Of a DNA stretch of 64,000 nt, positions 12,846 to 28,586 are shown one piece after another. Source of the stretch: Deltaproteobacteria bacterium. Its GTDB lineage: Bacteria; Myxococcota_A; Polyangia; JAAYKL01. The stretch spans positions 15,907 to 79,906 of the forward strand of contig JAUVDV010000004.1 in assembly GCA_030595125.1 (NCBI GenBank). Direction: 5' to 3'. Numbering within the stretch: position 1 is the stretch's first letter; every line of letters starts with the position of its first letter. The notes beneath the pieces are model-generated. The model saw nothing but the letters and a program-made list of their open reading frames with translations, ran no database searches and was not told where the DNA came from. The position numbers and the translations under genes are program-made.

Positions 12846-13029
12846 CGCTCGCTCCTCCTGCATTCGGATTTTGGGTAATCTAGCTCAGTTTCCGCTTTGG
12901 AATCAATCGTTGATTTTCATTATCGTTGAAATCATTGGCAGGAGTTCGATGAGCCCACCCGATTTTGAATCGACATTGATAGCAACCTTTTACCGCTGGT
13001 AATTGTCAATTAAGTCGATGGGTTGTGTA

Positions 13030-13058
13030 TTGACCGCTCCCATTTTTCCTGTTACCTT
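13030..13058 (+). promoter_or_regulatory. Putative sigma70 promoter of ihfB/uvrC
   Basis: TTGACC-17 nt-TACCTT with an extended -10 TG, in an AT-rich divergent intergenic region. Confidence 0.6.
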
Positions 13059-13086
13059 TCACCATTCCAAAAACGCGAGGAGCACC

Positions 13087-13395
<309 letters not shown>

Positions 13396-13450
13396 CAAAG
13401 CCGGCCCCCATCACATTCTCCTTTCCCGTAACCATCCGGTCCGAAGATCA

Positions 13451-15292
13451 ATGAAAGAAAAAGATCTCAAGCAGTTGCTCGACGGCCTGCCCGCCTCACC
13501 CGGCGTGTACCTGATGCGAGGCAACCAGGGAAAGATCGTCTACGTCGGAAAAGCGATAAACTTGCGCGCCCGCGTCCGCCAGTACTTTACCCCCGGAACC
13601 ACCGACCCCCGCCATTTCGTCCGCAACCTCCGGCAAAAGCTGACCTCCATCGAAGTGGTTCTGACCACGTCGGAAAAGGAGGCCCTGCTCCTGGAGTACA
13701 ACCTGATCAAGCGTCATTTGCCCCGCTACAACCTGCGGCTGATGGACGACAAGAACTTCCTGTGCCTCAAGCTCGACCTCGACAACGAGTGGCCCACCCT
13801 CGAGATGATCCGCAGGCCGAAAAGAGACGGCGCGATTTACTACGGTCCATTCCCGTCGGCCCGTTCGGCTCGTGAAACGCTCAAGGTCATAAACAGGTAT
13901 TTCAGGCTCCGCTCCTGTTCCAGACGAGCGTTCGCGAATAGGGTGAGGCCATGCCTCCAGCACCAGATTCACAGGTGCCAGGGGCCGTGTGTACTCGAAG
14001 TCAACCACGATGAGTACATGGAACAGCTCAGATATGTTCGGCTTTTCATGGAGGGCAAGAAGGATGATCTCATCGAACAACTGCGAGACCGGATGGCGGC
14101 TGCGGCTGACGAGATGGCGTACGAGCGCGCGGTGATGTATCGGGATCAGATCGCCGCAGTGGAACAAACACTCGCCCCGCAGCGGATCACAGATTTCAAG
14201 GACATCGACCAGGATCTGGTCGGGTTTTACCGGGAGGGGGATCAAGTGCAGGTGGCGGTGCTCGAAGTCCTGAGGGGACGACTCGCCGAAAAACGCGATT
14301 TCTTCTTCAAGGGTCTCGAGTTTCCCGACCACGAGATTATTTCGTCCTTCCTGGTGCAGCGATACACACACGCCATGCGCATCCCTCACGAGGTCATCGT
14401 GTCCCGCCCACTGCCTGATACGGCAGCCCTGAGCGAGCTGCTGACCGAACAACGGGGCGGGGTGGTCCGCGTTATTCACCCCCGGCGGGGGGCGCGGACC
14501 GATCAGATCAAGATGGCCGACCTCAATGCCAGGCAGGAGTTCGAGACCCATACCCGGGACAGGGAAGACATCCGCGAGCGCCTCGAAACGGTGCAGAAAA
14601 AGCTTCGGCTCGCGGCCCTGCCTGAACGAATCGAGTGCGTCGACATCGCCCACCTGGGCGGACGCGACACCGTGGGTGCGTTGAGTGCGGTAATCAATGG
14701 CAAAATTGATGCAAAGGCCGGCAGGATCTTTCGCCTGAAGATAGCAGCGGGCGGGGACGACTACAGGGCCATGGGAGAAGTGCTCACCCGGCGATTTGCT
14801 CGGGCGGCAAAATCCGAGCAGGGATGGGAAGCGCCGGATCTGCTGGTGGTGGACGGTGGGCGTGGACAGCTTTCGATCGCGCGGGCCGTTCTCGAGGAGC
14901 TGGGACTTCCCGAGCAGGAGGTCGTCGCTCTCGCCAAGGATCAGGATGGCTCAGGCGAGTCCACGGGCGACCGGTTGTTCCTTGTCGGGCGGAAGAACCC
15001 CATCCCGCTGCGCGCGCAGACATCATCGCTGCATCTCCTGGCCATGGCCCGGGACGAGGCGCACCGCCTGGCGAATCGATATCAACGCAAGATCCGCTCG
15101 AAACGAACTCTCAGATCGGCTCTCGACGACATACCCGGAGTGGGACCGAAGACCCGGCGTGCGCTGTTGAAAGCGTTTCGCAGCGTGAAGGGCGTTCGAG
15201 GCGCGTCGGTTGAAGAGCTGGTTAAAGTGAAGGGTGTAGGAATCGGCCTCGCGAAGATCATCGCCGACGCGTTGTCGCATCAAGATATGTAG
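13451..15292 (+). CDS. uvrC: Excinuclease ABC subunit C
   Basis: GIY-YIG (PGVYLM...VYVGKA), Cys cluster CLQHQIHRCQGPC, UVR domain, RNase H-like IECVDIAH and PDLLVVDGGRGQ, RDEAHR, HhH LDDIPGVGPK. Confidence 0.97.
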   Translation: MKEKDLKQLLDGLPASPGVYLMRGNQGKIVYVGKAINLRARVRQYFTPGTTDPRHFVRNLRQKLTSIEVVLTTSEKEALLLEYNLIKRHLPRYNLRLMDDKNFLCLKLDLDNEWPTLEMIRRPKRDGAIYYGPFPSARSARETLKVINRYFRLRSCSRRAFANRVRPCLQHQIHRCQGPCVLEVNHDEYMEQLRYVRLFMEGKKDDLIEQLRDRMAAAADEMAYERAVMYRDQIAAVEQTLAPQRITDFKDIDQDLVGFYREGDQVQVAVLEVLRGRLAEKRDFFFKGLEFPDHEIISSFLVQRYTHAMRIPHEVIVSRPLPDTAALSELLTEQRGGVVRVIHPRRGARTDQIKMADLNARQEFETHTRDREDIRERLETVQKKLRLAALPERIECVDIAHLGGRDTVGALSAVINGKIDAKAGRIFRLKIAAGGDDYRAMGEVLTRRFARAAKSEQGWEAPDLLVVDGGRGQLSIARAVLEELGLPEQEVVALAKDQDGSGESTGDRLFLVGRKNPIPLRAQTSSLHLLAMARDEAHRLANRYQRKIRSKRTLRSALDDIPGVGPKTRRALLKAFRSVKGVRGASVEELVKVKGVGIGLAKIIADALSHQDM

Positions 15293-15306
15293 AATGTTCT
15301 CCACAA

Positions 15307-16878
15307 TTGGACTACCTTCAAGTAGTGAAACCTTGCCATCGATCACGCGCTGCTCGGAAGGTGCTGGCGCAGTTGCTCTGTGTCCTCGCCGTTGCCTGTG
15401 GAGAGCGTGCGGACACGGCCGGTTCGGGGACGAAGACCAAAGCAGCCCCGGCGACGGAGCCCGGCGAGAGCACCTCGCAAAGGTTGCCCAACATCGTCTT
15501 GTTCTCGATTGATACTCTGCGCGCGGACCACCTCGGCGCCTATGGGTACAACCGACCCACGTCTCCGAACATCGACGCCTTTGCCAAGGAGGCTGTGCTG
15601 TTCGAGCGGGCGATCAGCCAGGCGCCCACCACCGCGCCCGCTCACATGTCTCTCTTCACGGGCCTGACCCCGGCGGTGCATCGCGTGAGCAACCTTTCCG
15701 AGGGCAAGCCGTTTCCCCTCGACCCGTCGATCCGGACCTTCACCGAGCTACTGCGGGAAGCCGGCTACCACACCGTCGGGCTGCACGGCGGCGGCAACGT
15801 GGACGGCTCTATCGGCTTCGACCGGGGCTTCGACCTCTACTCACCGGAGTACATCTCCTTCAACTGGATGGCGGCCCACAGGTCCGCCGTAGATCTCGAT
15901 GTGATCCGCTCCTGGATCGAGATCTGCAAGAAACGCGGGCGGCCCCTGTTCATGTTCCTGCACCACTACGTGTGCCACTCCCCCTATCTCTCCGCGCCGG
16001 AGTCGTATCGCGACCGCTATCTCCGCGGGCGCTCCGTCGAAGGGCTGCCTGTCGGGGTGCCGGACGAGCGGAAGAACCCGGTTTTGGAGATGATCGACCG
16101 GCAGGTCGCCGGCCAGCGCAAGAAGTTGTTGCGCTGGAACGTCTTTACAACAACGCACGAGACATTCTGGCAGGGCGTCGACCTGGCTCGCCCCGATCAT
16201 CGCGACCACGTCGTGGCACTGTACGACTCCGGTGTGTCTTACTCGGACGCGCTCTTCCACCAGGTGATGGAGATTCTTCGATCCGCGGGCGTGTACGACG
16301 AGACGCTCGTCATCCTGCTCTCCGACCACGGCGAGGAGTTCCACGAGCACGGTGGCCGGGAGCACCGCCAGCTGTTCGTCGAGACCCTGCACGTCCCGCT
16401 GCTGATCAAGTTCCCCGCCGGAGGCAAAGTGAAACCACGGAAGGTGAAGCCGGTCGTTTCCGTGATGGACGCGATGCCCACGCTATTCGACTACCTGGGC
16501 CTGCCGATCCAGATGCCTGTCCAGGGGAGGTCCCTGATGCCGGTGATCCGTGGCGGCGCGCCGGCCCGGCCCGAAGTAGTCAGCTATCCCGATCGGGATT
16601 TCAGCCAGGTGCGCCTCGAAAGCGGCAACTTCGTTTACACCAACTGGCGCAGCGCTGAGGTCGGCGAGTGGCTGTTCGACATGACGGAGGATCCCCTGGA
16701 GCGGCGGAACCTGGCGGCGGATCGACCCGACCTGCTGACCGAAATGCAGGATGCGGCGGTCCGGCGGTTGCGCGAGGACCATGAGTTCGGCGAGCGCGTC
16801 CGTCAGGCAGGCCCCGCAACACCGACCATCGATCCCAAGGTCATCGAAAAACTCAGGGCGCTTGGGTACGTACAGTAG
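15307..16878 (+). CDS. Sulfatase-like (alkaline phosphatase superfamily) lipoprotein, Thr-type
   Basis: SIDTLRADHLG, QAPTTAPAHMSLFTG (T-x-P-x-H where sulfatases have C/S-x-P-x-R), SDHGEEF, LHVPLLIK, C-terminal KLRALGYV; lipobox-like LAVAC. Start uncertain (TTG). Confidence 0.85.
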   Translation: MDYLQVVKPCHRSRAARKVLAQLLCVLAVACGERADTAGSGTKTKAAPATEPGESTSQRLPNIVLFSIDTLRADHLGAYGYNRPTSPNIDAFAKEAVLFERAISQAPTTAPAHMSLFTGLTPAVHRVSNLSEGKPFPLDPSIRTFTELLREAGYHTVGLHGGGNVDGSIGFDRGFDLYSPEYISFNWMAAHRSAVDLDVIRSWIEICKKRGRPLFMFLHHYVCHSPYLSAPESYRDRYLRGRSVEGLPVGVPDERKNPVLEMIDRQVAGQRKKLLRWNVFTTTHETFWQGVDLARPDHRDHVVALYDSGVSYSDALFHQVMEILRSAGVYDETLVILLSDHGEEFHEHGGREHRQLFVETLHVPLLIKFPAGGKVKPRKVKPVVSVMDAMPTLFDYLGLPIQMPVQGRSLMPVIRGGAPARPEVVSYPDRDFSQVRLESGNFVYTNWRSAEVGEWLFDMTEDPLERRNLAADRPDLLTEMQDAAVRRLREDHEFGERVRQAGPATPTIDPKVIEKLRALGYVQ

Positions 16879-18292
16879 GAGGCGGTGCAGGGTTTACGGC
16901 TCGTCCCGCGTCGGTTGAGGCAGGCCGATCGATGTAGCCGAGCGATTGGAGTTGCTTGATCTCCTCGGGGGACAGAGGCTTGTGCTGTGCGGGTGACAGC
17001 TTCACGCGATGCTGTTTGGCCACCCACTGAGCGAGCTTTTTCTTTAACCTTTCGCTCTTGTTCTCTCCTGCTGAGTACAGGTTATTCTTTTCTCCCGGGT
17101 CTTTGCTCAGATCGAAGATCTCGTAGCGTTTTGCTTCGCGGCTGTAGATGATCTTGTCTGCACCCTGTCGCATCATGAATCGAATGTCGAATAGCGAGCG
17201 TCTGGCATTGTAGGACCGGGAGTAGTGCGCGATATGGCTGGTGGTGTCAGTGTGTGAGAACGCCGGTCGGCTCCATGATGATCCGGGACGCCACAGGGCG
17301 CCGAGGCTCGCGCCGCTCTGGGCTCCCCTGGGTGGCGGGATCCCGGCGAGTTTGAGCAGTGTCGGTCCAATGTCGAGGTTCTGAACCACGGTCGTCACGC
17401 GTCTGCCGCGGGGTACCCGCTTCGGATAACGGATGATCAGCGGTACGTGAGTCAGTTCTTCGTAGAGGACCAGCGTGTGCAGCAACCAGCCGTGTTCCTG
17501 GAACGCTTCCCCGTGATCCGAGCCCACGACGACGACCGTCCGGTCCAGATCGCCGCTTCTCTCCAGCTGCTTGAGGACGCGCCCGATGGCGTGATCCGTG
17601 TAGGCGATTTCCCGGTCGTACAGTGTTATCGAGGTCATGAGATCGGCGCTGCGAAGCGGTGTTCCCTCGTTGAGCACGCCGGCGAGGTACACCGTTTGCC
17701 CCAGCCTGGATCGGGGCGGTGTGTCGTCGAACAGCTCATCGAACGGCGCGGGCGCCTCGTAATCGGAATGGACGTCGAAGTAGTGCACCCAGGCGAAGAA
17801 CGGCCGGGTGCGAGGCGCCTTGGCCCACTCGCGCAGCGCGGCGTTGATCCCGGCAGCACGGTCCTCGGGCGGTAGCTCGTCGAAGCGGTCGAAGCCGCGG
17901 TCGAAACCCCGCTGTCGCGAGAGGTAGCCGCCCGACACGAAGGCGGCCGTTTCGTACCCGGCCTCGCGGAAGTGCAGCGCCAGCGTCTGCTGGGTCGGGT
18001 CGAACCGGGAGGTCATGTCGATCATGCCGATCTCGGCGGGGTACCGCGAGGTCAGCAGCGAGGCCATCGAGGGCAGGGTCCACGGCGCCTGGGCCTCCGC
18101 CTGCTCGAACAGCACGCCTTCGGCTGCGAGACTATCGATGTTTGGGCTCGTCGGGCGCTTGTAGCCGTAACAACCAAGGTGGTCCGCGCGGAGCGTGTCG
18201 ACGGTGATCAGGAGGACGTTGGGGCGTTCTTCGGAGCCGCAGCCGGTGAGGGACAGTGCGACGGCGAACACCAGCGAGATGTGACGGGTCAT
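16853..18292 (-). CDS. Second sulfatase-like lipoprotein, Thr-type
   Basis: TVDTLRADHLG, QAPWTLPSMASLLTS, SDHGEAF, THVPLIIR, QLQSLGYI; lipobox LTGC; ATG 18292 lies 1 nt after the upstream stop. Confidence 0.88.
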   Translation of the reverse strand: MTRHISLVFAVALSLTGCGSEERPNVLLITVDTLRADHLGCYGYKRPTSPNIDSLAAEGVLFEQAEAQAPWTLPSMASLLTSRYPAEIGMIDMTSRFDPTQQTLALHFREAGYETAAFVSGGYLSRQRGFDRGFDRFDELPPEDRAAGINAALREWAKAPRTRPFFAWVHYFDVHSDYEAPAPFDELFDDTPPRSRLGQTVYLAGVLNEGTPLRSADLMTSITLYDREIAYTDHAIGRVLKQLERSGDLDRTVVVVGSDHGEAFQEHGWLLHTLVLYEELTHVPLIIRYPKRVPRGRRVTTVVQNLDIGPTLLKLAGIPPPRGAQSGASLGALWRPGSSWSRPAFSHTDTTSHIAHYSRSYNARRSLFDIRFMMRQGADKIIYSREAKRYEIFDLSKDPGEKNNLYSAGENKSERLKKKLAQWVAKQHRVKLSPAQHKPLSPEEIKQLQSLGYIDRPASTDAGRAVNPAPPPTVRTQAP

Positions 18293-18293
18293 C

Positions 18294-19187
18294 TCAGCCA
18301 CCCCTTCGCAGGAACCGCCGCAGATGGAAGGCGAAGGCCCGGGGTTCCACCAGGTCGGACACCTCGCGATGACACGACAGCTCGCAGCGATCGCACTCGC
18401 CGGGCTCCAGCTCGTCGATCATGCAGCCGTCGATCTCGCGTCCGTCCGGTGCGACGGTGGTCAGCAGCCATGGGCGGCAGGCGCGCCGCGTGCCGACCCG
18501 CGAAAGGGTGTAGGGGACGTTGACTACCGGGTAACGCACGGCCAGCGCCTCGATCTCGGTGCCGACCTTGCGGATCTCGTCCGGCCCGAGCGCAATCGGA
18601 TCACGGCCCGCGTAGTCGTACACGAAGCTGAACCAGAAGCCGTCGAACACGTCGATCAGCGGGTCCATCAGCGCCGGGATCTCGTATCTGTTCAGCCGCG
18701 AGACCGTGACCAGCGCGTGCCTCACGCCCTTTGCACTCGCCGCGTTATGCCGCAGCTGCTCGTACGAGCCGGGGCCTCGGATGCGATCGTGGGTCTCGGG
18801 GAGCCCGTCGACCGAGATCAGGAAGCGATGGGGGTGCAGCCCGGTGAGATCCCGCGTGCCGTTGGTGGACAGGGTCACGCGCCCGCCGCACTGGGCGGTG
18901 AAATCGATCAGCTCGGCCAGGTCTTCGCGGTTGGTGGGCTCGCCCCCTTCCAGCACGAAGCTCGACACGCCGCGGCTCCGGAGCTCGCGGATCCGTTCCT
19001 TCCACTGTTCGGTGGACAGCTCGTCGCACTGCTGCTGCGACCAGGGACAGTGGAGGCAGACGAGGTTGCACCGGTAGGTCAGCTTGAGCGTCGCCGCGAA
19101 CGGGGAGCGGTCCCCGGCCAGCCAGCGCGCCTGCCGCCGGCCCATCGAGGCCAATGACGTCAGTAGCTCGATGCTCAACGCCTTCAC
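18294..19187 (-). CDS. Radical SAM enzyme with a C-terminal Cys-rich (twitch/DUF3463-like) domain
   Basis: CNLVCLHC, GGEP, SVDG...HDRIRG; C-terminal CRPW...GC...CDRCELSC. Confidence 0.9.
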   Translation of the reverse strand: MKALSIELLTSLASMGRRQARWLAGDRSPFAATLKLTYRCNLVCLHCPWSQQQCDELSTEQWKERIRELRSRGVSSFVLEGGEPTNREDLAELIDFTAQCGGRVTLSTNGTRDLTGLHPHRFLISVDGLPETHDRIRGPGSYEQLRHNAASAKGVRHALVTVSRLNRYEIPALMDPLIDVFDGFWFSFVYDYAGRDPIALGPDEIRKVGTEIEALAVRYPVVNVPYTLSRVGTRRACRPWLLTTVAPDGREIDGCMIDELEPGECDRCELSCHREVSDLVEPRAFAFHLRRFLRRGG

Positions 19188-19190
19188 CGG

Positions 19191-20432
19191 TTATCTCCCC
19201 TCATCGTTGACGAAACGCGGATCGATCTTTGGGTACATACGCGAGACGAAGTACATGTGCTTGAGCAGGAGGCGGTAGGTGCCGTCGCCGTAGCGTTCGA
19301 ACACGCCGGCGGGACGCTTCGCCGGGCCGCCGCCCCGCCGGGCCAGCTCTTCATGGGGCAGCTTGCCAGCACCCTCGAGTTCGCCCAGGATCTCCCGGTT
19401 GCGCTCGACGAGGCAGTCGGCCCGGGGATATTCCAATTCCCCCCGCATCCGCCGCCAGATGCGCTCCAGCGGCTCGTCCTGAACGTTGCCGTAGGAGACC
19501 GGACAGAAGTCGCAGGGGCAGACCTCTCCCCGAGAGTCCACGTAGAGTCGATACGTGCCGCCGCAGCAACCGAGCACCTCGGGGCTCTCGACATAGGGGT
19601 AGTTGAGCAGCAACGGCAAGCGGCGGTCGGTGGCGGAGCGCCGCGCCAGGTCGATCATCCACTGCCGGTCCTCCGCCGTGAGCAGGGATCCGTGCGCGGC
19701 CCGCAGCTTGCCCACCGGGCGTGGCTGAAAGATCTGCACCGCCTCGATGCCCAGCCGCCGCATCTCCAGGAGGAAGCGCTCCAGTTCGCCGGAGCGGATC
19801 CGGCCGCTGGTGACCAGGGTGCTCACCTCCCGCTGGATCCGGTACCGGCGCAGCGTTTCCAGCGTGGCGATCGCGCGGGAGTACGAGCCCTCGCGCCCGC
19901 GCAGCCGGTCGTGCTCGGCCTCATCCAGGCTGTCCACGCTGACTAGCACCAGCAGGTTGGAGCGACCCTCCAGCCGCCGCGCGGTCTCCTCCGGCAGCTC
20001 CCAGCCCGAGGAGAAGACAAGCGCACCCGTGGGCGGCGCCACCCGCTCGATGTACTCCGCAAGGCGCTCGCTGAGGAACGGCTCGCCGCCAGTGAAGGCG
20101 ATCGCCGAGGTGCCCATCCGTTGCAGATCGTCGATCACGCCCAGCATCGCCTCGCGTGGCAGCGAACGCCCACGGCGCACCCCCTCGGAACAGTGCCAGC
20201 AGTCGAGCGGACAGCGGGGGGTGACTACCAGGGTCGCGATCTCCGGATGGTCGCGCTCGCCAACGCCGCGAACCAGCTCGCGCAGGGTGGCCCGGGCGAA
20301 GTGTGCGCGCAGGCTGCTCATTTCGAGCATGCCGCGCCGCGTTAGGTCGAGCGCGTACTGGCCGGCCAGTCTGGCCAGGGTCGCGACGTCGCGCGCCCGT
20401 ACCGCCCCGCGTATGTCGCCGTTTCGCTTCAT
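19191..20432 (-). CDS. Radical SAM enzyme, SPASM/twitch subclass
   Basis: CPLDCWHC, FTGGEPFL, SVDS...HDRLRG; CCGG-x-LYVDSRGEVCPCDF-x-YGNV-x-LERIW. Confidence 0.92.
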   Translation of the reverse strand: MKRNGDIRGAVRARDVATLARLAGQYALDLTRRGMLEMSSLRAHFARATLRELVRGVGERDHPEIATLVVTPRCPLDCWHCSEGVRRGRSLPREAMLGVIDDLQRMGTSAIAFTGGEPFLSERLAEYIERVAPPTGALVFSSGWELPEETARRLEGRSNLLVLVSVDSLDEAEHDRLRGREGSYSRAIATLETLRRYRIQREVSTLVTSGRIRSGELERFLLEMRRLGIEAVQIFQPRPVGKLRAAHGSLLTAEDRQWMIDLARRSATDRRLPLLLNYPYVESPEVLGCCGGTYRLYVDSRGEVCPCDFCPVSYGNVQDEPLERIWRRMRGELEYPRADCLVERNREILGELEGAGKLPHEELARRGGGPAKRPAGVFERYGDGTYRLLLKHMYFVSRMYPKIDPRFVNDEGR

Positions 20433-20595
20433 GATCGCTCTGACGCCCCGTCAACGAGGTCGCCCGGAAATACTAGTTCTCCAACGACTGAGGGTCAAGG
20501 AGACCGTCCCCGCTGCGGCGCCGGGGCGGACCCGGCCGGGGTTGCGCCCCGACCCCGGAGGTGTAAACTATGAAGCCGCCGCCGAGGGGAGCCGA

Positions 20596-21597
20596 ATGCG
20601 CGCATCCAACATCATCCGTTACCATCTCAAGTACTTGCGGCGGCTCGATCACCGGCAGCGCGCCAGGTTCGTCAAGTGCCAGCTGCGCTCCCGCGCCGGG
20701 GCGCTGCAACTCAAGGAGCTGTTCATCAGTTCCTCGCACGCCTGCAACGCCGATTGCGTTCACTGCTACGAGAAATTCACCCACGAGAAGTTCCCCCGGT
20801 CGCTGACCACCGAGCAGGTGCGGAGCGCCGTGGACCAGCTGGTGGAGCTCGGCGGCTACCAGGTGTTCTTCTGCAGCGGCGAGTTCCTGCTGCGCAGTGA
20901 CGCGCTGGACCAGATCGCCTACGCCCGGTCGCGCGATCTGGCGGTCAGCATCACCTCCAACGGGATACTGCTCGACGAGCCCACCGTCACCGCAATCGAC
21001 GAGGCCGGGGTGACCAAGCTGATCGTCTCCATCGACAGCGCCGACGCCTCCCGGCACGACGAGCTGCGGGGGGTGCAGGGCTGCTTCGAAAGCGCGGTAG
21101 GCGGGATCCGCCTGGCTCTCTCGCGGAGCATTCTCACCGAGATCTGGACCTACGTGTCGAGGAGCAACCCAGGCGAGCTGCGGGCCATCTCGCGCCTGGG
21201 AGAGGAGCTCGGCGTCGATTCGGTGTTCGTCTTCTTCCCCCTGCTCTCCGGCCACTTCTACGACAAGCCCGAGGAGAACCTCGCCCGGGAGGAGCGGGAT
21301 CGCTACCGCCGCGAGTTCAACCGCTCTCCCAAGGTGATGCTGGAGTTCCCCGACGAGGCGGATCACTGCCGCGGCGGCGGGGCCTACCACATCAATGTGA
21401 TGCCCTCCGGGCACGTCACCTACTGCCCGGCGGTGCCTTACTCATACGGGCACATCGACTCCCGCTCCCTGCGGGAGTGCCTGGTGGACATTCGCCGGGA
21501 CCGCCAACGGCTGGCTCACTGCTGCCGCGGCCAGTGTCCGGTGAACTTCGACGACTACCGCCGGGGCTGCAACGCCCGGTTCATATACGGCGACTGA
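20596..21597 (+). CDS. Radical SAM enzyme, SPASM/twitch subclass
   Basis: Real start ATG 20596 (GAGGGG SD); the 19747 extension is an antisense shadow. CNADCVHC, SGEFLL, SIDS...HDELRG, CRGGG-x-INVMPSGHVTYC, CCRGQC. Confidence 0.9.
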   Translation: MRASNIIRYHLKYLRRLDHRQRARFVKCQLRSRAGALQLKELFISSSHACNADCVHCYEKFTHEKFPRSLTTEQVRSAVDQLVELGGYQVFFCSGEFLLRSDALDQIAYARSRDLAVSITSNGILLDEPTVTAIDEAGVTKLIVSIDSADASRHDELRGVQGCFESAVGGIRLALSRSILTEIWTYVSRSNPGELRAISRLGEELGVDSVFVFFPLLSGHFYDKPEENLAREERDRYRREFNRSPKVMLEFPDEADHCRGGGAYHINVMPSGHVTYCPAVPYSYGHIDSRSLRECLVDIRRDRQRLAHCCRGQCPVNFDDYRRGCNARFIYGD

Positions 21598-23060
21598 TGG
21601 CCAGGATTCTACTAGTCAAGTGCTCTCAGTACGAGGGGGTGCTCAGCGCCTTCTCCTACCCTCTGGGGCTGATGTACCTGGCCGCCCGGCTGCGGCGGGA
21701 GCGCGTCGACCACGAAGTGCGGATCCACGACCTGCGCACCCGAGACGAGAACTACGACGAGCTGCGAGACGTGGTGAACTCCTACCGGCCCGACCTGGTG
21801 GGGCTCAGCGCCATCACCGTGGAGGCTTCGAGCATGGCCCGGGCGGCGGCGGCGATCCGCGCCAGCGGCTTCGACGGGCCGGTAATCGCCGGCGGGCCCC
21901 ACCCCACGGCTTTCCCCGAGGAATCGCTGGCCTGCGCCGACATGGACCTGCTGGTGCTGGAAGAGGGAGAGGAGACCTTCGCCGAGCTGGTGCGCGAGTG
22001 GTCCCGCGGGGGAGATCTGCATCGGGTGCCCGGTGTAGCCTTCCGCAACGGTGCGGGAATCGGGCGCTCGCCGGCACGGCCTTTCATTCGGGATCTCGAC
22101 TCCATTCCGCTGCCCGCCTGGGATCTGGTGGACGTCGGGGAGTACTCGCAGTTCAAGAGCATGTCCGGCATCCGCTCCCGGCCGCGCTTCGCCAACCTGC
22201 TCACCTCGCGGGCCTGCCCGTACAACTGCACCTACTGCCTGTCCATCTTCGGCAAGAAGTTCCGCCCTCGTTCCCCGGAGAACGTGCTCGAGGAGGTGCG
22301 CCTGCTGGTCGATCGCCATGACGTGGGCTACATCGAGATCATTGACGACGTATTCAACCACCAGCTCGATCGGGCCAAGCGCATCTTCGACCTGATCCAG
22401 GCCGAGGGGCTGCCGGTGGACGTGGCCTTCCCCAACGGACTGCGCTGCGACACCCTCGACCGGGAATTCCTGGAGAAGCTCGCGTGTTTCGACCACGCGC
22501 TGATCTGCGTGCCGGTGGAGAGCGCCTCCCCGCGGATCCAGCGCATGATCCGCAAGAACCTGGACCTGGCCAAGGTGAGCTGGACCATCGACACCTGCGC
22601 CGATCTGGGAATCTATACCCGGGGCTATTTCATGCTCGGCTTCCCCGGGGAGACCGAGGCGGAGCTGAAGGCCACGGTGGACTTCGCCGTGCGGTCCCGA
22701 CTGCACGCCGCCTTCTTCTTCGTGGTGGTGCCGTTCAAGGGCACCGAGCTCTACGACACCTATGCCAAGGAGCTTGGGCAGCGGGGCTACCGCCACGAGG
22801 ATCACGACTACTTTCGTGGACCGATGAACCTGAGCGCGGTCTCCGACGAGACCCTGTTTCAGATCCAGAAATGGGCCTACGTGCGGATGGCGGCCAGCCC
22901 TTCCCGCATCGCCCGAGTCTTCCGGGACTTCCCCAACCGGCGCTTCGTCTGGCCGGCAGTGAAGACCGGGATCGAGCTGTTCCGCGGCGCCGGCAAGGGG
23001 CACAAGCCGGGCCGGCCCGACCTCATCCCCGGGGCCAGCCGTCGTCCTACAGGCTACTGA
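21597..23060 (+). CDS. Cobalamin-binding radical SAM enzyme
   Basis: TGATG coupling to the upstream gene. N-terminal B12-binding Rossmann domain (YPLGLMYLAA, PDLVGLS, GGPHPT, EGEETF), then TSRACPYNCTYC, VESAS, YFMLGFPGET. Confidence 0.93.
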   Translation: MARILLVKCSQYEGVLSAFSYPLGLMYLAARLRRERVDHEVRIHDLRTRDENYDELRDVVNSYRPDLVGLSAITVEASSMARAAAAIRASGFDGPVIAGGPHPTAFPEESLACADMDLLVLEEGEETFAELVREWSRGGDLHRVPGVAFRNGAGIGRSPARPFIRDLDSIPLPAWDLVDVGEYSQFKSMSGIRSRPRFANLLTSRACPYNCTYCLSIFGKKFRPRSPENVLEEVRLLVDRHDVGYIEIIDDVFNHQLDRAKRIFDLIQAEGLPVDVAFPNGLRCDTLDREFLEKLACFDHALICVPVESASPRIQRMIRKNLDLAKVSWTIDTCADLGIYTRGYFMLGFPGETEAELKATVDFAVRSRLHAAFFFVVVPFKGTELYDTYAKELGQRGYRHEDHDYFRGPMNLSAVSDETLFQIQKWAYVRMAASPSRIARVFRDFPNRRFVWPAVKTGIELFRGAGKGHKPGRPDLIPGASRRPTGY

Positions 23061-23063
23061 CTG

Positions 23064-24092
23064 CTAGAACGAGCGCCACTCCCCGATCTCGAACACCATG
23101 TTGCCCTGATAGCTGTGCCGCAGCTGGCCGTGGCGCAGGTCCAGCTCGAACGGGGCGATGTAGATCGGGAAGTCGCGGGATCGCCGGGCGCGGCTGTCCA
23201 CGCGCAACACCACGTCCAGATCCTCCTCGCCATAGATGAGAGAAAAGGCACCGTTGCCCCGATCCGGCGGGCTCACCCGCAGATCGCCGTCCTCCACCAC
23301 CGCCACGCACTCGCCGTCGCGGTGGAGGGTGAGCAGCGTGCGGGCGTGGGGATAGTCGCCGGGCTTGAAGAACAGCACGGTGTACGGATCGGCGTAGGCG
23401 TAGCCCCAGTACCACCGTGCCGGGCGCTTGAGCTGCGACTTGAGCCAGCGGATGGACTCCAGGTAGCCGGTGCCGCGCAAGCCCTCCTTCTTTCCATCCA
23501 CGGTCAGCGAGCCCGAGAGCCGGCCCCTGGGGCAGGGCACCTCATACTCGAAGTAGTTGCCGAACTCCTCGTAGGAAAGCAAGTTGAACCCGCCTTTGCG
23601 GCACGTTTTCACGGTTTGCTCGACTGTGGCGTCGAGAACGATGTGCCGTCCCTTGTCGTCGATCTCAAGGTAGCACTTGTAAACATTACCACCATCTGTT
23701 TGCTGGCGGACGATGCGGTTGCTGCCGAGGGTGACGTCGAGATCCGTGTCCCGCACGACCAACTTGTTGGGGGGGTAGCGATTCCAAACGTTGATCACCT
23801 GCTCGTTGTCCCGCAGCACCACCAGGTTGATCCCTGCGAACGGTTTACCCGCAGAGTCGTGAAGCCGGCCGGCGAAGCCGACGTAGACCAGGGAGCCGTC
23901 GTCGGTGATGAAATAGAAGGTCCACTGCATCGCCAGCTTTTCCGGGTCGTACCAGGCACAGCGACTGCTCATCTCGAAAGGATCGGCCGCCGTGGAGCCG
24001 GAGTTTCCGCAGAGCCACCAGAGCGGCACTGACGCAACGATCAGCGCCACCAAACCGAGCAACAGCACCTTTCCCTTGCCACCCCACCTCAT
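23064..24092 (-). CDS. Membrane-anchored AttH/CrtC/Svf1-like beta-barrel (lipocalin-like) protein
   Basis: N-terminal TM anchor; QWTFYF; GRLSGSLTVDG...GTGYLES...RWYWGY pattern typical of the AttH/hydroxyneurosporene-synthase fold (from recall); ATGA overlap at 24089-24092. Confidence 0.6.
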   Translation of the reverse strand: MRWGGKGKVLLLGLVALIVASVPLWWLCGNSGSTAADPFEMSSRCAWYDPEKLAMQWTFYFITDDGSLVYVGFAGRLHDSAGKPFAGINLVVLRDNEQVINVWNRYPPNKLVVRDTDLDVTLGSNRIVRQQTDGGNVYKCYLEIDDKGRHIVLDATVEQTVKTCRKGGFNLLSYEEFGNYFEYEVPCPRGRLSGSLTVDGKKEGLRGTGYLESIRWLKSQLKRPARWYWGYAYADPYTVLFFKPGDYPHARTLLTLHRDGECVAVVEDGDLRVSPPDRGNGAFSLIYGEEDLDVVLRVDSRARRSRDFPIYIAPFELDLRHGQLRHSYQGNMVFEIGEWRSF

Positions 24093-25867
24093 GGCGCAGC
24101 CCCTCGTTCGACGGTGATGGCGGCGGACGCCCGGCCGAGCGGCTCGAGTCGCCGCGCGTCGGTGAACAGCAGGTACCAGGTGTAGTCCCCCGGCGGCCAG
24201 TCTTCGAGGTGCACGTCCAACGACCCATTGAAGCCGTAACATCCCGGGGAATGACGCACCCAGCTCGGCCATTGATCGCGCGGGTGGACCCGTCGATGCA
24301 ACCGGTAGCCATCGAAGAAGGCGACCCAACCGCGCGGCGGGCGGACGATGAAGTAGATGTTCATCGCCCGGGGTCTCCCGGGGTCGATTACCGAGAAGTC
24401 GAGGCGCATGGTATCACCGTCGTGGTAAGTTCGGCGGTCTGTCGACAGCTCCGTCCGCAACGGATCCGGTCGTTCCTCGATCGGTCCCTCGATCAACCGT
24501 CCCAGCGGCGCCGGCGTATCGATCGGTTGTTCGTCGTCGGGCCCCTCCCCACGCCGTTCCGGGCTCAGAGCGTCGGTGAGGCCCAGGCGCTGCAACAGGT
24601 CCCCCCCGTAGAAACCAATCGGGCCGCCCGCCGGAGGGTCGATCAAGCCACCGTAGTCGAGGTCGGTCTCGGCGAGCACATCCCACCGGCCATCGTACAT
24701 GAAGGCGCCGAGGAGATGGATACCGATGGAGACTACCGCAACGCTGAAGAATGCCGCCGCGGCCAGCTTACGCCGACTGAGCAGGTTCGCGAGTGGATAG
24801 AAGAGGAAGCACAGCAGCGGTCCGATGTCGGCGAGCAGGCGGGGCCCGTAGCAGTGTCCACCCCACCACATGAACCACTTGCCGACCAGCAGCATGACGA
24901 GCACCGCGCCCGCAGCCACGGCGATGGCGAGCCCATCGCGCGTCCTCGCGGCAATGACCACCCCACCCACCGCGAACAGCAGCACCGGTGAGTAGACGAA
25001 CAGTCCCCGCGCCAGTCCGAACAACGAACCGAACAAGCCCTCGTACAGCGGGATCTGCTTGAACCAGGACAAGAGGTCGATCTCGATGTTCTCGAAGGTA
25101 GGGGATGGCGCCCCGAATACGATCAGGTAGTACACCAGCAGCGGCGCCAGCGGCATGAGAAAGGCAACGAGGCAGGGAAGCACCTGACGGCGATGCCGCA
25201 ACAGTAGCCATATTCCGAGCGGCAGGGCGACAAACAGGTTGAGCGCCCGCATCGTCGCGGCGGCGCCGAGGGCCAGGGCGGCGAAGGGCATGTGGCGTTC
25301 GTCGATCTTCTCGGCACGGACCAGCAGGAACAAGGTCAGTGAGAGCATCATCTGGCTCGGACCGTGTTGCCAGAGGGCCTGGCTGCTGATCGAGAGCGAA
25401 CTCGTGCCCAGCCCGTAGACGAGGGCGAAGACGATCGCCCACCACCGTGAAATCAGATGCGCGAGGGCGAGAAACAGGAACAGCACCGATAGCACAGTAA
25501 TGCCTGTCGCCGCGTACTTCTCCAGGGCTTCGGCCTCCTCACTACCCGCCTCTATCCCGCTGAGCACGGGCACCAGGTAGACTGGCAAGGCGAGCAGAGC
25601 CGGTCCTATGGTGTACGCCGAGTATACGTGTTCTCCACGCTTGCGCAGGTAGTAGGGCACGGTTTCCACTGTGGGAAAGCAAGCCCGCGCCCGCTCGTCG
25701 TGAAGGAAAGCGAATTCGTCGAGGTCGAAGTTGCCCTCCCTGATCAGGCTGAACGGCACGCAACGAGTCGGCAGGGTATCACCGCTTACTATCGTGCGAC
25801 CGTTAAGCAGGTAGACCGTTGCAGTGATGGCGACCAGCGCTGCGGCCATGAGGGTCGTTCGGATCAC
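24089..25867 (-). CDS. GT-C-like multi-TM glycosyltransferase with a C-terminal extracytoplasmic domain
   Basis: GTG start overlapping the UbiA stop. SGDTLP...LIREGNFDLDEF, SQALWQHGP, RGLFVYSPV, WWGGHCYGPRLL; about 10 TM helices. Confidence 0.7.
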   Translation of the reverse strand: MIRTTLMAAALVAITATVYLLNGRTIVSGDTLPTRCVPFSLIREGNFDLDEFAFLHDERARACFPTVETVPYYLRKRGEHVYSAYTIGPALLALPVYLVPVLSGIEAGSEEAEALEKYAATGITVLSVLFLFLALAHLISRWWAIVFALVYGLGTSSLSISSQALWQHGPSQMMLSLTLFLLVRAEKIDERHMPFAALALGAAATMRALNLFVALPLGIWLLLRHRRQVLPCLVAFLMPLAPLLVYYLIVFGAPSPTFENIEIDLLSWFKQIPLYEGLFGSLFGLARGLFVYSPVLLFAVGGVVIAARTRDGLAIAVAAGAVLVMLLVGKWFMWWGGHCYGPRLLADIGPLLCFLFYPLANLLSRRKLAAAAFFSVAVVSIGIHLLGAFMYDGRWDVLAETDLDYGGLIDPPAGGPIGFYGGDLLQRLGLTDALSPERRGEGPDDEQPIDTPAPLGRLIEGPIEERPDPLRTELSTDRRTYHDGDTMRLDFSVIDPGRPRAMNIYFIVRPPRGWVAFFDGYRLHRRVHPRDQWPSWVRHSPGCYGFNGSLDVHLEDWPPGDYTWYLLFTDARRLEPLGRASAAITVERGAAP

Positions 25868-26766
25868 TTCGCCGCTCCCCGGTCGAGCACGATCTCGCTG
25901 ATCCTGATCGCGACGATGCCCACGCCGATCGCCATGAATATCAAGCGGTAGGCCAGCTTCAGGCGAGTCGCGCTCGCAAAGCTGAGGCCCGATGCGTAGG
26001 CTCGCCAGCAGACAATCGCGTAGACCGGGTACAGCATGATGAGGAACGCCATCTCCCGTGCCACGGTGCCGCGCATGGCAAGCCAACCCAGGTAGGCAAA
26101 GGCGGCGGTGAACAGAAGGAGACTGGCGAAGAATACCGGCCGCTGTCCAAAGGTCACCGCGTTGGTCCGAACCCCACTGTCTCGATCCGTTTCGTGGTCG
26201 CGCACCTCCTGGTTGAGGTGCCCTCCGACGAATACCAGCGCAAAGAACACGCCGAGCTGCAGGCTGCGAGAGTCGATCGCGGCCTGCAAGGTGTAGCCCA
26301 GCAGGAACTGCAGACACTGGCCCACCAGATGGGTGAGGGAGGAGGCGACGGGCAGGCCCTTGGCTCCACCAGCCGGCCAAGAGTACAGGACGCCCGCAAG
26401 GGCGATACCGGCGGCCAGGGTCAGGGAGAGCCAGGACAACAGGGCCATCAACATCAGGCTCACCGACGCCAGAAAGATACAAAACACCAGCATCTGCCGT
26501 TGCGTCACTCCCCGACTGGTGAAGACGTCCTCGGCCTTGGAAGGAGCGTTGCGATCCACTCGAAGGTCGGCCCAGTCGTTAAACAGAAAGATGAAGGCAA
26601 CCAGGCTGGTGGAGCCGAGGAGAAACAGACTCAGCCGTAGCCAGTCGAACTCGCCGAAGGTGCTCAGGGCGAACAGAATGCCGAGCACCGGCGCCCCCTG
26701 CAGGAACAGGATGTCCATCAATCTGACGCGTACCATGTGCGCGAGACAGCCGACAATCCACCGCAT
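25864..26766 (-). CDS. UbiA-family prenyltransferase
   Basis: First Asp-rich motif LFNDWADLRVD; second motif NQEVRDHETDRDSGVRTNAVTFG; about 8-9 TM helices. Start uncertain (26766 or 26802); an extended -10 TGtTACACT lies upstream. Confidence 0.85.
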   Translation of the reverse strand: MRWIVGCLAHMVRVRLMDILFLQGAPVLGILFALSTFGEFDWLRLSLFLLGSTSLVAFIFLFNDWADLRVDRNAPSKAEDVFTSRGVTQRQMLVFCIFLASVSLMLMALLSWLSLTLAAGIALAGVLYSWPAGGAKGLPVASSLTHLVGQCLQFLLGYTLQAAIDSRSLQLGVFFALVFVGGHLNQEVRDHETDRDSGVRTNAVTFGQRPVFFASLLLFTAAFAYLGWLAMRGTVAREMAFLIMLYPVYAIVCWRAYASGLSFASATRLKLAYRLIFMAIGVGIVAIRISEIVLDRGAAK

Positions 26767-26822
26767 ATTCAAAACCGTAGCTCGAATGCAGTGTAACATC
26801 AAGCCTGGATCCCGCCGACCGA

Positions 26823-26852
26823 TTGCCGATCGGCCCAGATCGGATGTATATT
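26823..26852 (+). promoter_or_regulatory. Putative sigma70 promoter of the GT2 gene with an operator-like inverted repeat
   Basis: TTGCCG-18 nt-TATATT; CCGATC-N6-GATCGG (26826-26843) spans the spacer. Confidence 0.4.
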
Positions 26853-26900
26853 GAATTTGTAGACCACTTCTGCAAAAAAGCGATTGAGGAAACAGGTTCC

Positions 26901-27581
26901 GTGAAGCTCAGCGTGATCATGCCGGTGTACAACGAGGCCGCCTCGATCGAAGCAATCGTGGCCAAGGTGCTCGCCAGCGACTTGGTGCAGGAATTGATCG
27001 TCGTGGACGACGCCTCCTCCGATGGCTCACGGGATATCCTCGAACGGATCGAGGGGCGAGATGAGCGGATCCACTGCTACCGGCACCGCACCAACTGTGG
27101 GAAGGGTGCGGCCGTGCGGACCGGCTTATCCCATTGTCACGCCGACGCCGTGGTAATTCAAGACGCCGATCTCGAGTATGATCCGGCAGACTACAAGGCG
27201 TTACTGGCCCCAATCATCGCCGACAAGGCAGACGTGGTCTACGGATCGCGTTATCTCGACCATGGGAATCGCCCACGCCAGCGCTGGGCCTATCGGTGGG
27301 CAAACCGGCTGCTCACCGTGCTGTCCAACTACTGCACCGGCCTCGCGTTGACCGACATGGAGACCTGCTACAAATGCTTTCGCCGGGAGGTGATCCAGCA
27401 GATGCCGTTAGAGCAGGATCGCTTCGGAATCGAGGTGGAACTCACGGCCCGGGCGGCGCGGATGGAGTGTCGGATCATCGAGGTCGGTATCAGATACGAG
27501 GGTCGCGGGCACGACCAGGGCAAGAAGATCGGTCTCATCGATGGGCTCGAGGCGCTGCATTGCATCTTCAGGTACTGGTGA
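26901..27581 (+). CDS. GT2 glycosyltransferase, polyprenol-phosphate glycosyltransferase (DPM1-like)
   Basis: KLSVIMPVYNE, VDDASSDGS, NCGKGAAVRTG, QDADLEYDP, VYGSRY, TDMETCYKCF, FGIEVELT; GTG start after a GAGG SD. Confidence 0.92.
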   Translation: MKLSVIMPVYNEAASIEAIVAKVLASDLVQELIVVDDASSDGSRDILERIEGRDERIHCYRHRTNCGKGAAVRTGLSHCHADAVVIQDADLEYDPADYKALLAPIIADKADVVYGSRYLDHGNRPRQRWAYRWANRLLTVLSNYCTGLALTDMETCYKCFRREVIQQMPLEQDRFGIEVELTARAARMECRIIEVGIRYEGRGHDQGKKIGLIDGLEALHCIFRYW

Positions 27582-27624
27582 CGGGGCTGACCCCCGTGGC
27601 AATACCGATGCAAACTCATCTAGA

Positions 27625-28566
27625 TCATCCATCCAGATTGGCATGTATTCGGCGTAAACCCTCCGCAAGATCAACAATGGGCTCCCATCCCGTCAACGCT
27701 CGCAACAACGTCGTATCCGGCCGTCGATGTCTCGGTTCGTCGGGCAGCGTGTCCAGATGTTCCATACCGACGTCGCTTCCCCATTCCAGAAGGACCATCT
27801 TCGCAAGTTTGTTAACGGTCAACTCGTCCGGATGTCCGATGTTGATCGCCTGAGGAAGCTCTTCGGGGTAATGCAGAAGACGACAGATAACCTCGACCGC
27901 ATCATCGATCCATAGGAAACATCGGGTCTGCTCGCCATCGCCATAAATCGGCAGATCTCTTCCACCGGAAAGAGCATCCATGAAGTTCGGTATAACCCGC
28001 CCATAGCCGCTGGTGGACCAATCCATACCAGGACCGTAGACATTGAAAAGCCGGAGGGCCGCACCGTCACCACCATCCCTTCGAAAGCTTGAAACCAACT
28101 CTTCCCCCATCCGCTTTGCGCTGGAATAAGGTGTCCGGGGTGTGAGAAGGGAAGTAAGAGAACGATCTAACTCCGAGATTCCCATCCTGGCGCATTTCTC
28201 AGAAGTAGTATGGCCGTATACCTCGCTGCTCGATGTGAAAAGGAGACGACATTTTTTTTCTTTGGCCAGATCGCACATCCTCTGCGTACCCCAGACGTTA
28301 GGATCTATCACCGTCCTTGGACGCTCCATGTACAGCGTTGGTATCGCAACGGACGCCAGATGGATGATTCCGTCCAATCGCCCCTGGATAAATGTCGTAT
28401 CAAAGGATTCGATGTTTTGTACAACGCGATCGAGCCTCGAATGCCGTTGCCCAGGTTCCGATGTAATATGGTTGTCGACAATAACGACCCCATGACCATC
28501 CTCCAAGAGTCGCCGCACCAGAGCACGACCGATAAAACCGTCGCCTCCTGTCACGAGATATTTCAT
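27625..28566 (-). CDS. NAD-dependent epimerase/dehydratase, UDP-glucuronate decarboxylase (UDP-xylose synthase)-like
   Basis: TGGDGFIG, SSSEVYG, YSSAKR, RLFNVYGP, GRVIPNF, YGDGEQTRCF, RRPD; locally low GC. Confidence 0.85.
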   Translation of the reverse strand: MKYLVTGGDGFIGRALVRRLLEDGHGVVIVDNHITSEPGQRHSRLDRVVQNIESFDTTFIQGRLDGIIHLASVAIPTLYMERPRTVIDPNVWGTQRMCDLAKEKKCRLLFTSSSEVYGHTTSEKCARMGISELDRSLTSLLTPRTPYSSAKRMGEELVSSFRRDGGDGAALRLFNVYGPGMDWSTSGYGRVIPNFMDALSGGRDLPIYGDGEQTRCFLWIDDAVEVICRLLHYPEELPQAINIGHPDELTVNKLAKMVLLEWGSDVGMEHLDTLPDEPRHRRPDTTLLRALTGWEPIVDLAEGLRRIHANLDG

Positions 28567-28586
28567 AGCACCCACTTGGTCATCCT

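Follow-up and report, generated by a model that had tools for sequence, protein, structure and literature searches.

A modular, radical SAM-rich gene cluster for a putative isoprenoid-anchored envelope lipid in an uncultured myxobacterium

The DNA analysed here (the window) is a stretch of 64,000 nt from Deltaproteobacteria bacterium (assembly GCA_030595125.1, contig JAUVDV010000004.1, positions 15,907-79,906, forward strand). At window positions 15307-28566 it carries a cluster of genes for two sulfatase-fold lipoproteins, four radical S-adenosylmethionine (SAM) enzymes, an AttH-fold protein, a GT-C-like membrane protein, a UbiA-family prenyltransferase, a family 2 glycosyltransferase (GT2) and a UXS-like short-chain dehydrogenase/reductase (SDR). 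The cluster is real and modular, and no characterised pathway matches it, in agreement with a preliminary description of this DNA that could assign it to none. We put at about one in two the probability that the genes specify a single modular envelope-lipid pathway, which would lead, in the absence of oxygen, to a glycolipid or glycoconjugate with an isoprenoid anchor. This reading is built on co-conservation, domain fusions and family assignments, from which the product and every chemical step given below are inferred. Gene identities were taken from the list of open reading frames (ORFs), Pfam and NCBIfam, folds from AlphaFold2 (AF2) models compared using Foldseek, and solved relatives from sequence and profile searches of the PDB. 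All related loci are derived from metagenomes. The DNA itself originates from cold-seep metagenomes, a source that fits O2-independent chemistry, and the host is an uncultured myxobacterium; the 20 runs listed include no RNA run. The genes and gene calls recur unchanged in an independent assembly (Logan contig L001) and in a metagenome-assembled genome (MAG) contig, and the named relatives closest to the cluster are Myxococcota, Polyangia or 'Deltaproteobacteria' MAGs.

Comparison of sequences from related loci shows a conserved core of six genes, sulfA, sulfB, GT2, UbiA, AttH-fold and GT-C-like, joined to an exchangeable tailoring slot. In contigs L100/L101, which have a GC content of 71% versus about 60% here, the six genes are syntenic as one cluster that includes the convergent sulfatase pair, and the L100 products are 58% (sulfA), 54% (GT2), 51% (AttH), 48% (UbiA), 47% (sulfB, also in L101) and 40% (GT-C) identical to those of the window. 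GT2, UbiA and GT-C also occur together in L008, L009 and L010, and UbiA orthologs of 43-48% identity lie beside GT-C and GT2 in these three loci and in L100. Orthologs of rSAM413 and rSAM297 lie beside GT-C and AttH in L003, and in L009 another B12 radical SAM gene adjoins GT2-UbiA-GT-C::AttH. The preliminary description had named a failure of the genes to co-occur elsewhere as one outcome that would count against it; they do co-occur, in modular fashion, in L100/L101, L095-L097 and L003. Upstream of the B12rSAM-GT2-UbiA-GT-C::AttH genes, L009 (915-4713) carries genes for a pyruvoyl arginine decarboxylase, two arginase/agmatinase proteins and two class I methyltransferases, which may point to a polyamine-type head group.

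The AttH-fold protein is encoded at 23064-24092 (minus strand; 342 aa, with an N-terminal membrane anchor) and has no match in Pfam. Its AF2 model (pLDDT 87.9) is all-beta behind the N-terminal helix and forms a double beta-barrel of the AttH/CrtC fold. The AttH-like character suggested earlier is borne out by Foldseek, which matched the model to AttH NE1406 (2ich, 8.6e-9) and 7a0t (3.9e-8) with a probability of 1.0 and a TM-score of about 0.5. Further fold matches, with E values of 1e-8 to 1e-5, were kievitone hydratase, the fungal Diels-Alderases CghA, Fsa2 and Phm7, and 25-phosphosteroid lyase, and the family profile extends to Pfam CrtC proteins among its distant matches (P0258-P0261, P0287). 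Several Trp are conserved, as are D37, D117, E182, Y183 and R215. Members of this subfamily are very rare: ten homologs were found in 5.8e9 proteins, and a separate, exhaustive profile search gave only eight clusters at E<1e-30 in 1.84e9 (1.84 billion) representatives.

Three architectures of the AttH domain were found. In the window it carries its own signal anchor; in P0020 (885 aa, from a 'Deltaproteobacteria' MAG) it is fused behind the periplasmic C-terminal domain of GT-C, with its anchor helix deleted; and in P0251 (609 aa, from the L100 cluster and seen on four contigs) it is fused behind a UbiA with nine helices by hydropathy. The protein is predicted to be periplasmic, and the inferred topology places the domain on the periplasmic side in all three cases. 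With AttH fused to GT-C and to UbiA in different genomes, the three proteins probably act together at the periplasmic face. Several further contexts of the family were observed. In L004-L006, from JGI metagenomes, a member of 38% identity occurs without GT-C; in L004 (about 7100-14200) it is surrounded by genes for a GDSL lipase, a CMAS methyltransferase and a protein of 354 aa whose repeats resemble those of squalene-hopene cyclases. P0255 is a separate GDSL::AttH-like fusion, and in L012 (3218-8099) genes for an 856-aa phospholipase-D/VTT(DedA) fusion and a TMEM260-like GT-C lie beside GT-C and AttH.

The content of the tailoring slot differs between clusters. In L100, sulfB closes a minus-strand operon whose other products are a Fe-S (Fer4) protein of the NapGH-like type, a small ferredoxin and a flavoprotein (FAD) of the geranylgeranyl reductase (GGR) family (TIGR02032, 140.6 bits against a cut-off of 158.8; digeranylgeranylglycerophospholipid (DGGGPL) reductase, 1.7e-33), and the divergent plus-strand operon is headed by a gene for a CMAS-type methyltransferase. 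These two positions are those held in the window by rSAM413-rSAM297 and rSAM333-B12rSAM, respectively. Elsewhere, CMAS, GT-C and AttH are translationally coupled in L007, a CMAS gene accompanies those for a squalene-cyclase-like protein and a GDSL lipase in L004, and a PLD-VTT protein is encoded in L012. Since the radical SAM enzymes are thus exchanged for enzymes of prenyl- or acyl-chain saturation and methylation, this exchange is the strongest hint available that they act on a hydrocarbon chain, and on comparative grounds they may tailor an isoprenoid. A precedent comes from archaea, in which a similar set of SPASM (Tes, Gms) and B12-domain (GrsA/B, Gmm) radical SAM enzymes tailors saturated isoprenoid chains and sugar head groups (PMC13459092). 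Action on a sugar head group, by analogy with HpnJ or Cds, is possible. The preliminary description had proposed a radically tailored prenyl glycolipid or surface glycan; its prenyl-lipid part is supported by the fusions and by the GGR/CMAS slot, and the product details that it added (methylated, cyclised or ether-linked) are conjectural.

The four radical SAM genes form two divergent pairs separated by an intergenic spacer of 163 bp (20433-20595). On the minus strand, rSAM297 (18294-19187; 297 aa; Pfam Radical_SAM, 2.4e-15) has its CxxxCxxC motif at YRCNLVCLHC, a twitch-like C-terminal Cys cluster, and orthologs of 61% identity in L003 and 70% in L095. The adjacent rSAM413 (19191-20432, minus strand; 413 aa) matches both Radical_SAM and SPASM in Pfam, has SkfB as its best PDB match (8e-14), and has orthologs of 56% identity in L003 and 64-82% in L095-L097. 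On the plus strand, rSAM333 (20596-21597; 333 aa; Radical_SAM, 2.7e-18) has a SPASM-type C-terminal Cys cluster, BlsE as its best PDB match (2e-17) and orthologs of 76-87% identity in L095-L097. Its stop codon overlaps the start (ATGA) of B12rSAM (21597-23060, plus strand; 487 aa), a class B, cobalamin-binding enzyme with B12-binding and Radical_SAM domains. The CxxxCxxC motif and C-terminal (auxiliary) Cys clusters are kept in all four. Three SPASM/twitch enzymes and one B12 enzyme, as first described, are present, with the Pfam SPASM model reached by rSAM413 only.

The whole quartet, with the divergent-pair layout intact, was found at 64-89% identity in three metagenome contigs (L095-L097), and a metagenome scan with rSAM413 returned three short contigs only. 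A B12rSAM ortholog (60%) adjoins a UbiA gene in L091; in L098 (Nitrospirae) and in L099, from another lineage, relatives of 45-46% identity are surrounded by arrayed genes for GT2 and for GT-C proteins of the PMT_2-like type. The L098 (MAG GCA_016180645.1) and L099 loci have two to three paralogous B12-binding radical SAM genes within larger glycosylation arrays, which comprise four to five PMT_2-like membrane proteins of about 515 aa together with GT2 and TMEM260-like GT-C genes. In seven Acidobacteriota/Thermoanaerobaculia loci (L032, L033, L034, L037, L044, L047 and L055), a gene weakly like the B12 radical SAM profile (24-28 bits) lies about 0.7-2 kb upstream of a GT-C-family gene, on the opposite strand.

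None of the quartet came near any curated NCBIfam cut-off. The scores of B12rSAM on the HpnJ and HpnR models were 123.2 (cut-off 577.6) and 78.3 (cut-off 650), and there is no squalene-hopene cyclase gene in the window. Likeness to radical SAM enzymes that tailor glycerol dialkyl glycerol tetraethers was scored by the Tes model (NF045702) alone, GrsA/B, Gms and Mss not being scored, and rSAM297 reached 34.5 bits on it against a cut-off of 450. All scores on the Hpn, Tes, ladderane, BchE, PhpK and ApyD models were far under the cut-offs. The nearest solved or curated relatives include the peptide maturases SkfB, PqqE, MftC and ApyD, as would be expected if the SPASM enzymes matured a ribosomally synthesised and post-translationally modified peptide encoded elsewhere; however, the cluster has no precursor-sized ORF, protease or exporter, its intergenic gaps are at most 163 bp and its neighbour links are to membrane lipid/glycan enzymes, and we attach hardly any probability to this explanation.

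The two lipoproteins are paralogs of the alkaline-phosphatase superfamily with a sulfatase fold. The sulfA gene (15307-16878, plus strand; Pfam Sulfatase, 1.2e-42) starts either at 15307 (TTG) or at 15361 (GTG), and sulfB (16853-18292, minus strand; Pfam Sulfatase, 4e-53) is the final gene of the rSAM413-rSAM297-sulfB operon, 1 nt from rSAM297. Both products have a lipobox and retain the metal ligands, and their best matches overall are true S1 sulfatases (BT4656, 1e-40). The C/S-x-P-x-R motif is missing from sulfA, which has T-A-P-A-H in its place with Thr at the nucleophile position (APTTAPAHM); in sulfB (APWTLPSM, likewise with a Thr nucleophile) T-L-P-S-M aligns with S-G-P-S-R of BT4656. 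The Arg of the motif is absent from both, and Thr also replaces the Cys/Ser that gives formylglycine in the L100 orthologs of both proteins. The Thr nucleophiles of LtaS, EptA and NPP enzymes function unmodified. Because of these precedents, sulfA and sulfB are by analogy more likely Thr-nucleophile phosphoesterases or phosphotransferases, and the 'sulfatase' annotation is likely wrong. The two sulfatase-like lipoproteins first reported therefore stand as to fold and lipobox, and a sulfatase function does not, given the absent formylglycine motif.

A pairing of formylglycine S1 sulfatases with an anaerobic sulfatase-maturating enzyme (anSME) was considered and rejected: the motif is missing, there is no similarity to anSMEs and the partners lie apart in L003 and L100. 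A variant of this pairing has rSAM413 and rSAM297 oxidising the active-site Thr of the lipoproteins before export, in the manner of an anSME. The operon shared by sulfB and the SPASM pair would suit such maturation, as would Thr-x-P exactly at the formylglycine site and its conservation in orthologs, and anSMEs can oxidise threonyl peptides in vitro. This variant is nonetheless highly improbable, as the L100 sulfatase pair has no radical SAM partner and the L003 radical SAM pair no nearby sulfatase, the Arg of C/S-x-P-x-R is missing, and rSAM413 matched no anSME chain in the PDB at E<1e-3 and no anSME model among the best 25 of its 44 NCBIfam matches.

The UbiA-family prenyltransferase (25864-26766, minus strand; 300 aa; Pfam UbiA, 8e-25) consists of the UbiA domain only, with about nine transmembrane helices by hydropathy and both Asp-rich motifs (NDWADxxxD and DxxxD) intact. 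A PDB search with the single sequence gave no match, and matches were obtained with the family profile alone: AfUbiA (1e-12), DGGGPS (3.5e-7) and DPPRS (1e-4). On the DPPRS model (NF008977) the protein scored 19.6 bits against a cut-off of 234, and it has no HAD phosphatase domain.

The GT2 gene (26844-27581, plus strand; Pfam Glycos_transf_2, 1e-34) encodes a soluble protein without transmembrane segments. At E<=1e-8 its PDB matches are ArnC (5e-15), DPMS (5e-13) and GtrB (8e-9) only, all three of which make polyprenyl-phosphate sugars, and its NCBIfam matches (AglJ at 1e-31, PpgS and ArnC) are all under the cut-offs; its sequence thus resembles those of polyprenyl-phosphate sugar synthases of the ArnC/DPMS/GtrB type.

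The 586-aa protein encoded at 24089-25849 (minus strand) is a divergent polytopic membrane protein with a C-terminal beta-sandwich of the Ig/CBM-like type, its C-terminus matching Ig/Fn3/CARDB-type domains. It matches the NCBIfam LA_3751/2 family (7e-10) and has more than 735 homologs, some of which are named 'GT family 39' at NCBI and some of which give weak PMT_2 matches. Among the invariant features of the family are D30 and a WWGGHxxGPR motif. The family profile had no sequence match to any GT-C in the PDB, and the sole whole-protein match of the AF2 model (pLDDT 85.9) was the archaeal oligosaccharyltransferase AglB, with a TM-score of 0.38-0.43 for the membrane part. The label 'GT-C-like' is on this modelling reasonable but not proven. 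The common form of the family has about 700 aa, some 100 aa more than the myxobacterial form, with the additional segment located after the membrane domain and before the C-terminal beta-sandwich. The large membrane proteins beside UbiA or a B12 radical SAM in L091 and L093 are not detectably related to this family, and no mutual relationship was found by BLAST among the large proteins of L008, L009, L091 and L093.

The same glycosylation genes could instead serve a periplasmic, three-component-like decoration of a polysaccharide or lipopolysaccharide (LPS). GT2, and possibly UbiA as a polyprenyl-phosphate phosphoribosyl-type synthase, would make lipid-linked donors, GT-C would transfer the sugar to a glycan, the radical SAM, GGR or CMAS enzymes would tailor the carrier lipid or the lipid-linked sugar, and the lipoproteins would add or remove phospho-substituents. 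This is a possible alternative that we hold to be somewhat unlikely. In its favour, of 83 loci of the wider GT-C family, drawn from many phyla, 9 have an orthologous GT2 next to the GT-C gene, this being the commonest pairing of the family; the GT2-UbiA-GT-C triad of L010 lies inside a Wzy/PGT/GT1 polysaccharide locus, and L008 has an LtaS-size sulfatase, GDPD and MBOAT. GGR-family enzymes also saturate dolichol-type carriers. Further, the C-terminal beta-sandwich resembles the carbohydrate-binding module of GT136, and an SDR gene is adjacent, as in the C. youngae O2 system (PMC11127046). Against this explanation, the UbiA falls far below the DPPRS cut-off and lacks the HAD domain, its profile being nearer to AfUbiA and DGGGPS; the window has neither a MATE or GtrA-type flippase nor polysaccharide backbone genes; and AttH/CrtC-fold enzymes use hydrophobic isoprenoid, polyketide or steroid substrates, the other contexts of the AttH family being lipid enzymes.

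Eleven enzyme genes, as counted in the preliminary description, lie consecutively between uvrC (13361-15292), which directly precedes sulfA, and a dnaJ-like/hsp70/gyrA block (28587-33716); ten were assigned with Pfam or NCBIfam, the GT-C-like one weakly, and the AttH-fold protein has no Pfam match. Neither non-ribosomal peptide or polyketide synthase nor regulator or exporter genes are present in 15307-28566, and translational coupling is frequent. Junctions within the cluster are tight (+1, +3, -1, +3, -4 and +14 nt), with gaps of +1 and +3 for sulfB/rSAM297/rSAM413, -1 (the ATGA overlap) for rSAM333/B12rSAM, and -4 and +14 for AttH/GT-C/UbiA. The transcription units are (uvrC-)sulfA, rSAM413-rSAM297-sulfB, rSAM333-B12rSAM, UbiA-GT-C-AttH, GT2 and (gyrA-hsp70-dnaJ-)UXS. 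The 163-bp spacer held no Rfam family or riboswitch, and its single sigma-70-like match is at chance level. An Rfam scan of 12500-29500 found no riboswitch or other RNA at E<=1, and promoter and terminator scans gave matches not above chance level. Every gene in 15307-28566 is accounted for and the largest gap is 163 bp, which leaves no small flippase gene (GtrA, ArnE/F). Outside the cluster, window positions 40956-52148 on the minus strand form a single ORF of 3730 aa.

The GC content at third codon positions (GC3) is 0.84-0.90 in sulfA, the radical SAM genes and AttH, 0.77-0.81 in sulfB, GT-C, UbiA and GT2, 0.545 in the UXS-like gene and 0.73-0.79 in the flanks. The stretch is a modular mosaic rather than a single inserted island, and because of this mosaic composition the proposal of one island inserted after uvrC is unsupported, the adjacency itself being correct. 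The UXS-like gene (27625-28566, minus strand) encodes an extended SDR whose best solved relative is human UXS1 (5e-45; 157 bits versus 114 for the next family) and which has the motifs SSEVYG, YxxxK (YSSAK) and QTR (GEQTR); the S/T-E, Y-x-x-x-K and R residues we take to be the catalytic set. Its GC3 is far lower than that of every neighbour (0.73-0.90), which suggests recent acquisition; the gyrA-hsp70-dnaJ block ends with its dnaJ-like gene 20 nt upstream of the UXS-like gene, and no ortholog was found in any related locus compared. Its earlier inclusion as a cluster member is doubtful, and it is probably a loosely attached neighbour.

The GC3 mosaic and the missing co-conservation of UXS, together with the absence of radical SAM genes from most related GT-C loci and the occurrence of B12rSAM orthologs in L093 without such partners, are what would be seen if a sulfatase pair, a radical SAM quartet (acting on a cofactor or peptide) and a glycosylation module had come to lie side by side by chance, with no common product. 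We regard chance juxtaposition as very unlikely, given that a genome whose GC content is very different retains six genes, both sulfatase paralogs among them, in synteny at 40-58% identity, that two independent domain fusions exist, that sulfB is translationally coupled to rSAM297, and that pairwise neighbour links recur in L003, L009, L091, L098 and L099.

Under the envelope-lipid pathway favoured here, UbiA (AfUbiA/DGGGPS-like) would couple a prenyl chain to a phosphorylated head group at the cytoplasmic face. The four radical SAM enzymes would then modify the hydrocarbon chain without O2, B12rSAM by C-methylation and the SPASM/twitch enzymes by C-C coupling, cyclisation or related chemistry; in the sister cluster a GGR-family flavoprotein with ferredoxins and a CMAS-type methyltransferase would take their place. 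A flippase, not among the window genes, would move the lipid to the outer leaflet, where the membrane-anchored AttH/CrtC-fold protein, associated with UbiA and GT-C, may bind, hydrate or cyclise the prenyl tail and the two lipoprotein phosphoesterases may process the phosphoester. The GT-C-like enzyme would finally add a sugar from the polyprenyl-phosphate sugar made by GT2; the sugar may be a pentose if the UXS-like neighbour supplies it.

Several points weigh against this pathway. The composition of the stretch is mosaic, and the radical SAM genes are accessory because they are missing from L100, L007, L008 and L010. By sequence likeness their substrate could be a sugar, B12rSAM being HpnJ-/AprD4-like and rSAM333 BlsE-like, and a UbiA reaction of the phosphoribosyl pyrophosphate (DPPRS-like) type is possible, though the similarity is less. 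The similarity in fold and profile on which the GT-C assignment is based is weak. No flippase, prenyl-diphosphate synthase or glycerol-phosphate prenyltransferase is encoded in the window, and most related loci are MAGs or short contigs, L095-L097 being closely related to one another.

A more specific form of the pathway would make the cluster a bacterial counterpart of the archaeal isoprenoid toolkit: a DGGGPS-like UbiA would make a prenyl (ether) lipid, its chains would be cross-linked, cyclised or methylated by SPASM and B12 enzymes unrelated to Tes, Gms, Grs and Gmm, and a periplasmic AttH-fold enzyme attached to UbiA, together with a new GT-C family, would turn it into an outer-leaflet glycolipid. 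We consider this form quite unlikely; if true, the lipids would belong to a new class, from which orphan sedimentary biomarkers might derive.

A literature search for the gene combination found no description, the nearest papers being one on GT136 (PMC11127046) and a 2026 review of lipid-modifying radical SAM enzymes that covers only Tes, Mss, Gms, GrsA/B, Gmm, Cds, HpnH/J/P/R, Jaw5 and ladderane candidates (PMC13459092). If the envelope-lipid pathway exists, tailored isoprenoid glycolipids would be made in anoxic marine sediments by a route not described before. The pathway would also give a first functional context to the rare AttH-fold family, to a large GT-C family (more than 700 homologs in many phyla), to a divergent UbiA clade and to mislabelled Thr-type 'sulfatases', and would explain the recurrence of cobalamin radical SAM genes beside lipid-carrier glycosylation genes in uncultured anaerobes. 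Methylated or cyclised lipid biomarkers that are so far unassigned could be its products, and the interchange of the radical SAM enzymes with GGR and CMAS provides a testable handle on the radical SAM role.

Of the known systems, the Gtr/Arn three-component glycosylation systems (GtrA/GtrB/Gtr-type; ArnC/ArnT) resemble the cluster in a GT2 of synthase type beside a polytopic GT-C-like protein with its active side in the periplasm, and in a UXS/ArnA-like decarboxylase gene nearby. However, the cluster has no small flippase, ArnB or ArnD, its GT-C family is uncharacterised and without a sequence match in the PDB, and UbiA, the AttH-fold partner, four radical SAM enzymes and two lipoproteins of the alkaline-phosphatase superfamily are additional. 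The PPPRS-MATE-GT136 pentofuranose system of Citrobacter youngae O1/O2 and the mycobacterial decaprenyl-phospho-arabinose (DPA) pathway (PMC11127046) share with it a UbiA-family enzyme, an SDR and a GT-C or GT-C-like protein that ends in an Ig-like domain. The UbiA found here differs in lacking a HAD domain and in failing the DPPRS model, the SDR is of the UXS type and not GalE-/DprE2-like, the GT2 is extra, and no MATE flippase was found in the Pfam results for the stretch. The lipoproteins resemble LtaS, EptA/MCR and OpgB, Thr-nucleophile members of Pfam Sulfatase, in fold, metal ligands, Thr nucleophile and envelope location, but they are soluble lipoproteins and lack the transmembrane domain found at the N-terminus of LtaS and EptA.

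The AttH/CrtC superfamily, which includes CrtC (carotenoid 1,2-hydratase), kievitone hydratase, the fungal Diels-Alderases and 25-phosphosteroid lyase, shares the double lipocalin-like beta-barrel, and its known enzymes act on hydrophobic substrates (isoprenoid-like, polyketide or steroid). The protein of the cluster differs in being membrane-anchored and predicted periplasmic, in the UbiA and GT-C fusions of its relatives and in matching no Pfam family. Archaeal ether-lipid synthesis and tailoring (DGGGPS, GGR, Tes/Gms, GrsA/B, Gmm, Cds; PMC13459092) is resembled in the DGGGPS/AfUbiA-like UbiA, in the combined presence of SPASM and B12 radical SAM enzymes and, in the sister cluster, in the GGR-family reductase with ferredoxins. 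In contrast to that system, the radical SAM enzymes miss the Tes, Hpn and other curated models, the host is bacterial (Myxococcota), and the periplasmic GT-C, AttH and lipoprotein steps are without an archaeal counterpart; GGGPS and glycerol-1-phosphate dehydrogenase were not seen in the window, the host genome not having been searched for either. The building blocks of the cluster are of known kinds, and their assembly is new.

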